Shown here: positions 1 through 1,470 of the stretch, in pieces
Layout: each line of letters begins with the position of its first letter
Position numbering within the stretch: the stretch's first letter is position 1
Source of the DNA: Escherichia phage dune
DNA: 64,000 bases
Sequence record: MN850636.1
Reading direction: 5' to 3' (one strand)
The notes under the pieces: generated by a model
What the model saw: only the letters and a program-made list of their open reading frames with translations
Told to the model about the DNA's origin: nothing
The model's database searches: none
Made by a program: the position numbers and the translations under genes

Positions 1-1405
1 AAGCCTTCTTAACAACCTATACAATCACCTTAACCATCTCTCTATACCCTCTTAGAAGCTCCTATACACCTCTTAATCTCTAGGTTATCTGTGTTACTTA
101 ACAGTAACCCATTATGTCAGCTATGACACCCTCTATAGGTGTTCACTAGGTATTACTAAGCCTCTATATAGACTGTTTTAACAAACTTAACAGGAATATC
201 TTTACAGACCTTATCTCACAAGGTCTAACACGGTACTAACAAGGTATCTTATAAGCCTGTTTCTACCTGTATTTTTAAAAGACTGTATAGGTAATTATTC
301 AGAATCTTAAAATTTTTATAAAATAGGACTATCAAGTCATTTTTTAGGGTCTTTGAAGGAACTGAAAAATATCTGATTAGGATGTATATCTGCTTGGTAG
401 CCCTTAACAGCTCCTTAACACCCCCTTTGCAAAATTTTAAAATATCCTTAACAATCTCTTAACAGTTCTCACATCTTCTTAACAACTCTTCAAAGGTCTT
501 AACAGTTTCTTAACAGAACTAACAAGGCTGTAACAGTTTTCTAACAAGTGCTGAATAGTCTTTACAGATGCTTAACAGATGGCTAACAAGAGCTAACAAG
601 TTAATTTTAAAGAGTTATTTTGTTAAGATAATTAACAAGTTCCTAACAAGTGTTTAATCTTTTTAACAAGCTATTAACATGGTCACTACTCTTTTCTTAT
701 CGTTCCCTTTCCTTTCTTAGTGATTCTTTAAACATACCTCTTAAAAGCTCTGTATAGCTCTGTATAGCCCCTTTTAAGTCTCTTCCTAGTAGTTACCCCT
801 CAACTGTATTGATAGCTCTTTATAGGGCTTTACAGAAGCTTTAAAGGCTATGTCAAAGACTCTTACAAGGCTTTTACGTGGTCTTAACAGAGATTTAACA
901 AGGGGCTAACAAGTTGCTAACAAGTGTCTTAAAAGCATAACTATGTAGGGTTTGTTAAGAAATTGTTAAGAAAATGTTAAGGGGGCTAGCATTTACGTAA
1001 CTTTTAAGCTACTTTTACGTAACTTCATAACCCCCTATAACATACTTTTAAGACACTAACAATAGGATTCGATAGAATCTATCTCATAGTCCTTTTTAGA
1101 TATTCACAAGATAGCTAACGAGATAATAAAGCTTACACCCTTATAAGATTCTTTTAAGTCTCTGGGAAGCTTTATAAAGGGCTTTTTAGGGTGAGTTAAT
1201 GCAATCCCTTAAGTTAGGTTGATAAGGCTGTTATAGAGCTTTATAGAGCGTTTAAACGGTTGCCCTTCCCTTTCGGGTTATGGGCTTATATTTAAGTTGA
1301 TTTGATAAAAGGCTATAGAGTAGACTATAGAGTTATTGCTTTTTAAGGTCTGATAAGATTCTGGAAAGGAAAGGGAAAGGGTTGTATAAGGGATTTGATA
1401 AGACG
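1..1405. repeat. Non-coding repeat-rich region with several motif families (YTAACAR, CTCTATAG tandem pairs, CCCTTTCC/GGAAAGG inverted copies, TTTTARGGTCT)
   Basis: No substantial ORF; tandem pairs at about 750-773, 1218-1245, 1312-1335; TTCCCTTTCCTTTC at 703-718 versus GGAAAGGAAAGGGAAAGGG at 1364-1382. Confidence 0.5.
401..680. repeat. Phased array of about 18 YTAACAR motifs, mostly 10-11 bp centre-to-centre; candidate protein-binding iterons (origin, pac site or enhancer)
   Basis: Hand-located copies at 404,415,448,459,479,499,510,519,530,541,561,572,583,593,632,643,663,674; no ORF of 60 aa or more in 1-1470. Confidence 0.6.
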
Positions 1406-1432
1406 TAAAAAAGCCCCTATGGGAAAGGGGCT
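1406..1432 (-). terminator. Rho-independent terminator ending the leftward early operon
   Basis: Minus-strand reading AGCCCCT-loop-AGGGGCT followed by TTTTT; lies just downstream of the last minus-strand gene (end 1471). Confidence 0.55.
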
Positions 1433-1470
1433 GTAAAGGTATCTGGGGCTATTTAGCCCCGCTGCGTCGA

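Follow-up and report, generated by a model that had tools for sequence, protein, structure and literature searches.

A helically phased NTAACA array inside the direct terminal repeat of a probable genome-terminus locus in a Felix O1-like phage

A gene-free region opens a 64,000-nucleotide stretch of DNA from Escherichia phage dune (sequence record MN850636.1; the whole analysed stretch is called the window below). This region, positions 1-1470, had been picked out in a preliminary description as non-coding space that implies a cis-acting function, for example a terminal repeat, a host-takeover promoter cluster or small RNAs. We propose, with a probability of roughly 60%, that the region serves as genome terminus and packaging locus in a Felix O1-like myovirus. 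Positions 396-986 very probably constitute the direct terminal repeat (DTR) of this phage, with the genome ends lying at this locus, as judged by homology to relatives whose ends have been mapped or annotated. Inside the DTR is a large set of short NTAACA sites in helical phase, which we regard as a likely candidate for a protein-binding array.

In a search of the region against other phages, 256 phage records matched, nearly all of them Felixounavirus, Mooglevirus or Suspvirus. The best records share about 95% identity with the region and Felix O1 itself shares about 92%. Judged from these matches, the source phage of the window is a Felixounavirus.

The DTR of the related phage UAB_Phi87 was measured as 608 bp by Bal31 digestion and run-off sequencing, the DTRs of Felix O1 and FO1a were stated to be of similar size, and the large terminase (TerL) of UAB_Phi87 clusters in a Felix O1-like DTR group (Bardina et al., PMC4837284). 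Short terminal repeats were also inferred in the Felix O1 genome paper (PMC3185647). The annotated DTR of UAB_69 (618 bp) maps onto window positions 394-988, and several GenBank records begin or end at the same places. A record end falls at window position 396-397 in SeKF_63, NBSal004 and EcSzw_1, and at position 986 in Ro111lw, HP1 and SPJ41. The repeat_region annotated in HP1 starts with GGTAGCCC, the same sequence as the left end of the DTR in the window. Several other GenBank records match the DTR at two places, and in SPARTY the two record ends share an exact repeat of 439 bp whose junctions are homologous. Compared with the Felix O1-like DTRs of UAB_Phi87, UAB_69, Felix O1 and FO1a, the element in the window shows about 90% identity, the same position between convergent gene blocks and the same junctions, at a length of 591 bp compared with the published 608 bp and the annotated 618 bp. 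It is present as a single copy, in assembled form, and its ends are uncertain by a few bp. The earlier suggestion of a terminal repeat is therefore supported for the central 591 bp, by homology only, and not for the rest of the region. A DTR is known biology in Felix O1-like phages, and this phage is another member of that group.

Both boundaries of the DTR could be placed by homology. The left junction reads GTATATCTGCTT/GGTAGCCCTTAACA on the + strand (384-409), and the cut would fall between 395 and 396, immediately after CTGCTT. The right junction reads TGTTAAGGGGGC/TAGC (975-990, + strand), with the cut expected between 986 and 987. The junctions were compared in 34 distinct DTR loci of the Ounavirinae. 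The consensus is CTGCTT/RGTRG on the left and G(G/T)GGC/TA(G/A)C on the right, and GTATATCTGCTT is identical in 34 of 34 loci, with the caveat that the pattern used to collect the loci required it. One look-alike of the right junction, AAGGGGC/TAAC, occurs internally at about 906. From the comparison of these loci, the DTR ends are fixed and sequence-defined, and their boundaries are conserved.

The DTR contains about 21 NTAACA sites on the + strand and four on the - strand. The longer form YTAACAR occurs 24 times on the + strand of the region, compared with 0.76 expected. The main array detected by a motif scan (403-680, + strand) consists of 17 TAACA cores and one inverted copy at 621, at spacings of 9-11, 20, 31-33 or 39 bp. 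The 17 cores in the interval 396-700 are coherent in phase at a period of 10.3 bp (R = 0.82), and of 19 spacings between neighbours, 18 deviate from a multiple of 10.5 by no more than 1.5 bp. The 10.3-bp period was also found in Moogle (R = 0.85) and SUSP1 (R = 0.91). Spacing in helical phase places the NTAACA sites on one face of the helix.

A second group of sites marks the right end. Four YTAACAR sites with an exact spacing of 11 bp (883-924, + strand) face three inverted copies of TTGTTAAG, also spaced by 11 bp (952-981, - strand). The 27-bp spacer between the two groups is conserved, and the right cut directly adjoins the inverted copies. The first + strand NTAACA copy lies 8 bp from the left end, and the sites point inward at both ends. 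Either virion end, when read 5' to 3', would start with ..CCCTTAACA.. within 4-6 nt, so that the two ends together form a short inverted repeat at the termini.

The array is a general feature of the 34 Ounavirinae DTRs, each of which has between 14 and 23 sites on the + strand and between two and six on the - strand. Measured from junction to junction, these DTRs are 439-658 bp long, and their lengths fall into clusters at 570, about 580, 591, 602, 613, 623, 633-638 and 658 bp. The steps of about 11 bp between clusters equal one array unit. Indels of 11 and 22 bp also recur in an alignment of seven sequences from three genera. Together, the length steps and the indels indicate that the array grows and shrinks by whole units and so stays in phase.

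In the same alignment, TAACA cores inside the DTR are 90% invariant, compared with 59% for the other DTR columns, and the TAACA copies in the flanks are not specially conserved. The NTAACA sites, rather than the spacers between them, are kept by selection. The DTR is 75% identical to that of Moogle, compared with 66% for the adjacent 82-aa gene, and invariant columns make up 59-64% of the non-coding sequence compared with 56% of this gene. Conservation by position within successive triplets is 0.62/0.61/0.64 in the region, without codon periodicity, compared with 0.30/0.73/0.64 in the adjacent gene. A region as conserved across three genera as the gene beside it, and without a coding signature, bears out the earlier view that this much non-coding space implies a cis-acting function.

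Coding capacity was considered and rejected. As had been noted before, no open reading frame (ORF) of at least 60 aa is present in the region; the longest ORFs from start to stop encode 35 aa on the + strand (650-757) and 59 aa on the - strand (1343-1522), the latter extending into the adjacent gene. Stop codons are absent from at most 69 consecutive codons compared with a shuffle mean of 80, there is no 3-nt periodicity, and the ORFs called in relatives are not conserved. Short hypothetical ORFs have been annotated in the gap of UAB_69 (gp027 and gp028), Michonne111 and FO1a (gp23), with further calls in REP5-7 and L27. They are conserved neither in position nor in frame and are probably spurious.

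The region makes up most of a gene-free gap of about 1.65-1.7 kb between the 3' ends of two convergent gene blocks. The earlier figure of 1.4 kb covers only the part inside the window: the gap overruns the left window edge, where relatives have about 250 bp more plus a + strand terminator. Convergent gene blocks enclose the gap in garuso, UAB_69, finno, Moogle, SUSP1, Michonne, phiEa104 and Bas63, and the homologous gap is the largest gene-free stretch in every relative inspected.

The arrangement extends to the more distant genus Kolesnikvirus. In blastn, Erwinia phage phiEa104 and Hafnia phage SPARTY match only window positions 383-507, which cover the left junction and the start of the array. 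Despite this divergence, the architecture is the same. The genes converge on a 1.4-kb gap, the junctions read CTGCTT/AGTGG and GTGGC/TAAC, and TTAACA is found as + strand copies in the left part and as inverted copies beside the right end. An IMG/VR scan with the 17-mer of the left junction found no lineage beyond the Ounavirinae; its 47 hits were Ounavirinae loci with arrays and about 16 chance matches without arrays.

These features could be explained by a phage DNA-binding protein that occupies the phased sites, either a specificity factor resembling a small terminase or some other packaging or end-binding protein. On replicative concatemers, such a protein would cover the DTR and direct nicking by the large terminase to the two junctions. 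Staggered cuts and strand-displacement synthesis would then duplicate the DTR and leave a copy at both ends of the packaged genome, as in T7-type phages. The TATAG/TATAGAG motifs described below, which are inverted between the left part and the right flank, might serve as accessory cis sites. We give a role of the array specifically in terminase recognition and DTR cutting slightly less than an even chance. A broader version of the proposal is that the array is an undescribed terminus organiser of all Ounavirinae, in which a candidate phage protein would polymerise along one face of the DNA for about 280 bp and set the two cut sites of the DTR, leaving the array length free to vary in 11-bp quanta. 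This version is tentative, and we consider it more doubtful than probable.

Among the closest known parallels outside the family is the DTR of the T7/T3/SP6 type, which is likewise a short exact repeat of hundreds of bp with fixed ends and unique non-coding flanks. T7 reportedly has heptamer arrays (SRL and SRR) beside its terminal repeat. The T7 arrays lie outside its 160-bp repeat, whereas the main array here lies inside a repeat nearly four times longer, and the phages are unrelated, a podovirus compared with a myovirus. Directly outside the left DTR cut, ATATCTG occurs twice (369-375 and 386-392), 17 bp apart, and is kept in 7 of 7 aligned sequences. It resembles ATCTGTT, the pause signal of the T7 concatemer junction. 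This likeness may be a coincidence, since Felix O1 encodes no phage RNA polymerase (PMC3185647), and for the same reason the step in which T7 RNA polymerase pauses at the junction cannot apply here.

Two other systems share part of the arrangement. In the pac site of P1, clusters of four and three hexamers bracket a short spacer, much as four YTAACAR sites face three TTGTTAAG copies over 27 bp here (883-981). The P1 hexamers contain GATC and are regulated by Dam, and P1 is packaged by a headful mechanism with the cut between the clusters. A P1-type pac site was rejected for this locus because the window has no GATC, the ends are exact in relatives and the right end, as mapped, falls immediately beyond the three inverted copies instead of between the clusters. 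Origin iterons and the 10-11-bp centromere repeats of plasmid partition systems of the R1 parC type also consist of many short sites in helical phase, an arrangement suited to cooperative coating by a small DNA-binding protein. In contrast to those systems, no initiator or partition gene adjoins the array and no DnaA boxes were found. The array also occupies mapped genome ends, and the phage is virulent.

Several points weigh against a packaging locus as the function of this region. The window carries one copy of the DTR, which is assigned to this phage by homology, and the ends differ by a few bp with the source: 608 bp as published, 618 bp as annotated and 614 bp as calculated from the junctions. 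The last figure belongs to UAB_69, and the DTR of UAB_Phi87 was assumed to be identical. T7-style duplication of a DTR is established for other phages, and the mechanism has been carried over from there. TerL is located outside the window. Bas63, the only relative checked for an annotated small terminase, has none, and we know of no protein shown to bind NTAACA. Finally, phased iterons beside an A+T-rich block also fit a replication origin, as does a local minimum of cumulative GC skew at about 750-1150, which spans the right DTR boundary.

An origin is the first alternative to be weighed. In this case the NTAACA sites would be iterons for a phage initiator, the 82% A+T block at 270-345 would be the unwinding element and the DTR would merely overlap them. 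The many short direct repeats in helical phase, the A+T block beside them, the skew minimum and the strong conservation of the cores all fit the form of an origin. However, no DnaA box with at most one mismatch and no IHF consensus was found in the region. Both flanking operons are transcribed into it, the flanking genes are small and hypothetical, and in Felix O1 the presumed early divergent transcription was placed elsewhere, between genes 96 and 97 beside the replication genes (PMC3185647). The local skew merely tracks the orientation of the motif. GC skew tracks the direction of transcription in these phages, and skew over the whole genome would not separate an origin from a terminus. Placement of the sites also fits end recognition: the inverted copies stand precisely at the right end as mapped, and only 8 bp separate the first + strand copy from the left end. 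An origin would not account for inverted copies that adjoin the mapped ends. We consider an origin unlikely.

Another possible explanation is that the sites bind a protein that acts on the incoming linear DNA, in end protection, ejection or circularisation, for example by shielding the ends from RecBCD. The sites start 3-8 bp from both termini and face inward at both, and the authors of PhageMaP suggested that Bas63 lacks a RecBCD inhibitor (10.1101/2024.10.10.617714). Against this, about 20 sites over 280 bp exceed what end capping would need and no candidate protein is known. Nothing separates such a role from recognition by terminase, and the two roles are compatible. As an explanation in its own right, end protection seems improbable.

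We regard as equally improbable a cluster of promoters for the host RNA polymerase, small non-coding RNA genes, or both, with TTAACA as a -35-like and TATAGA as a -10-like hexamer. TTAACA agrees with TTGACA at 5 of 6 positions. The best sigma-70-like match in a promoter scan, TTAACA-N17-TAAAAT (415-443, + strand; 10 of 12 positions), lies about 20-48 nt inside the left end and points inward. Its Kolesnikvirus counterpart is TTAACC-N17-TAACAT, within the segment common to both. By eye, TTGATA-N17-TATAGA (1219-1247) and TTGATA-N18-TATAGA (1302-1331) can also be read in the right flank, and both are conserved across genera. However, sigma-70-like sites are not enriched in the region (six compared with 4.0 +/- 2.1 in shuffles), promoters are not built from -35-like hexamers repeated in tandem every 11 bp, and TATAGA lacks the conserved final T. 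There are no ORFs downstream for such promoters to serve, and the + strand candidates of the right flank would read antisense into the convergent operon. The lack of enrichment and of downstream ORFs, together with the transcription of both gene blocks towards the region, speaks against the host-takeover promoter cluster proposed at the outset. The small-RNA option likewise found no support, as a scan of positions 1-1800 against Rfam 15 gave no match at E<=1 and a tRNA/tmRNA scan of the window found none. On the + strand, the stability of the hairpin at 1250-1300 is unremarkable (z = -1.3).

A non-functional, slippage-prone spacer or a set of decayed genes is highly improbable. In its favour, indels the size of one or two units (11 and 22 bp) show active slippage, and several annotators have placed short ORFs here that are not conserved. 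Against it, the region is conserved at least as well as the adjacent coding gene, the motif cores stand far above the spacers in conservation, the architecture is kept in Kolesnikvirus despite divergence, and codon periodicity is lacking.

In the literature searched on Felix O1, wV8, phiEa21-4, UAB_Phi87 and Bas63/PhageMaP, we found DTR lengths only and no account of the phased array, the inverted arrangement at the ends, the TATAG family in the flanks or the 11-bp length quanta. No functional data for the gap were found in it. The phased NTAACA array is therefore probably previously undescribed. The packaging-locus reading refines the known biology of short DTRs and overturns none of it. Salmonella and E. 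coli typing, biocontrol and therapy all make wide use of Felix O1-like phages, many of whose GenBank records start at an arbitrary position. The conserved junctions let true genome ends be annotated in family members from sequence alone, and the spurious small ORFs in the gap can be recognised and removed. The locus is also DNA to keep intact when Felix O1-like phages are engineered or their genomes reduced, and the phased array offers a concrete target for finding the packaging-specificity protein of the Ounavirinae. If the terminus-organiser version were true, the array would represent a mode of packaging recognition distinct from cos, pac and T7-type junctions.

A second motif occurs on both sides of the NTAACA array. 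TATAGAG and its complement CTCTATA are present in four plus three copies in the region, compared with 0.02 expected per strand, and in two copies in the other 62.5 kb. The motif runs as CTCT..TATAG from the left flank to position 827 and as TATAGAG in the right flank. Several of the repeats first described as independent families are thus one TATAG family in two orientations. The TATAG-type motifs reported for 40-175 are present as CTCTATA at 40-46, 131-137 and 162-168. Inside the DTR, the family includes a tandem repeat of GCTCTGTATA found by TRF (746-768, + strand; 2.3 copies, period 10, 100% match), which corresponds to the pair reported at about 750-773 and here read as CTCTGTATAGC at 748-758 and 758-768; the related CTCTTTATAG follows at 816-825. 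In the right flank, TTGATAAGG and two copies of TTATAGAGC occupy 1219-1249. The copies themselves lie at 1231-1239 and 1241-1249, so that the pair reported at about 1218-1245 exists but had been started about 10 bp too far to the left. Similarly, TTGATAAAAGG and two copies of CTATAGAG occupy 1302-1332, and the copies at 1313-1320 and 1325-1332 agree with the pair reported at about 1312-1335. The switch in orientation of the TATAG motifs, together with a change of sign in local GC skew between about 750 and 1150, suggests a rough dyad of the locus near the right DTR boundary.

In phiEa104, the right flank of the gap (positions 2080-3508 of the fetched locus) carries nine copies of TTAGAAG in place of TATAGAG and the left flank carries CTGAGAAG three times, and TTAACA is kept in the DTR. 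This swap of flank motifs suggests that the flanks have a second protein-site pair, which evolves faster.

The flanks are unique sequence by alignment to relatives. The left flank (1-395) is incomplete at the window edge. It contains YTAACA pairs at 178/187 and 225/236, and its A+T block at 270-345 includes the palindrome TTTTATAAAA at 314-323. A 32-bp insertion at 86-117, absent from the six aligned relatives, holds the palindrome GTTAC-TTAACA-GTAAC around an extra TTAACA. The right flank (987-1470) starts with TTTACGTAACT-type repeats at 992-1025. Its most conserved block is 1260-1291, and 93% of columns are invariant in the 30-nt bin 1261-1290. This block can fold into a hairpin of modest stability that shows no covariation, being nearly invariant.

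A long-range inverted pair had also been reported, between positions 703-718 and 1364-1382. Both arms are present, as the pyrimidine tract TTCCCTTTCCTTTC inside the DTR (703-716, + strand) and the purine tract GGAAAGGAAAGGGAAAGGG (1363-1381), but they are low-complexity tracts and conserved pairing between them is unsupported. The purine arm is reduced to GGAAGGG in Mooglevirus and Suspvirus. Since the purine tract is not conserved between genera, the pair was not accepted as a functional structure.

At the right edge of the region, the - strand gene block ends at 1471. Two tandem hairpins follow it on the - strand (1412-1460), at 1445-1460 and 1412-1432, the second of which precedes TTTTTT (folding z = -3.8). 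They are the terminator of this gene block and the only terminator that the scan of the region found.

Two further observations reach beyond the region. The 64-kb window has no GATC site, although dinucleotide-preserving shuffles predict 179 +/- 13. Nor does GATC occur in 50 kb of Bas63 or in the fetched loci of Mooglevirus, Suspvirus and Kolesnikvirus. These data suggest a subfamily-wide avoidance of Dam, MboI or DpnII-type sites. In addition, a 27-nt element, GGGGAAGGTCATTCCCTCCCCGTTGAT, which consists of a hairpin plus a tail, occurs in four exact copies (1765-1791, 2364-2390, 2926-2952 and 4170-4196). The copies are intergenic among the first small - strand genes beside the terminus region, and the copy at 1765-1791, on the - strand, lies about 45-70 nt upstream of the start codon at 1719. 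The element may be a repeated promoter, processing or terminator cassette.

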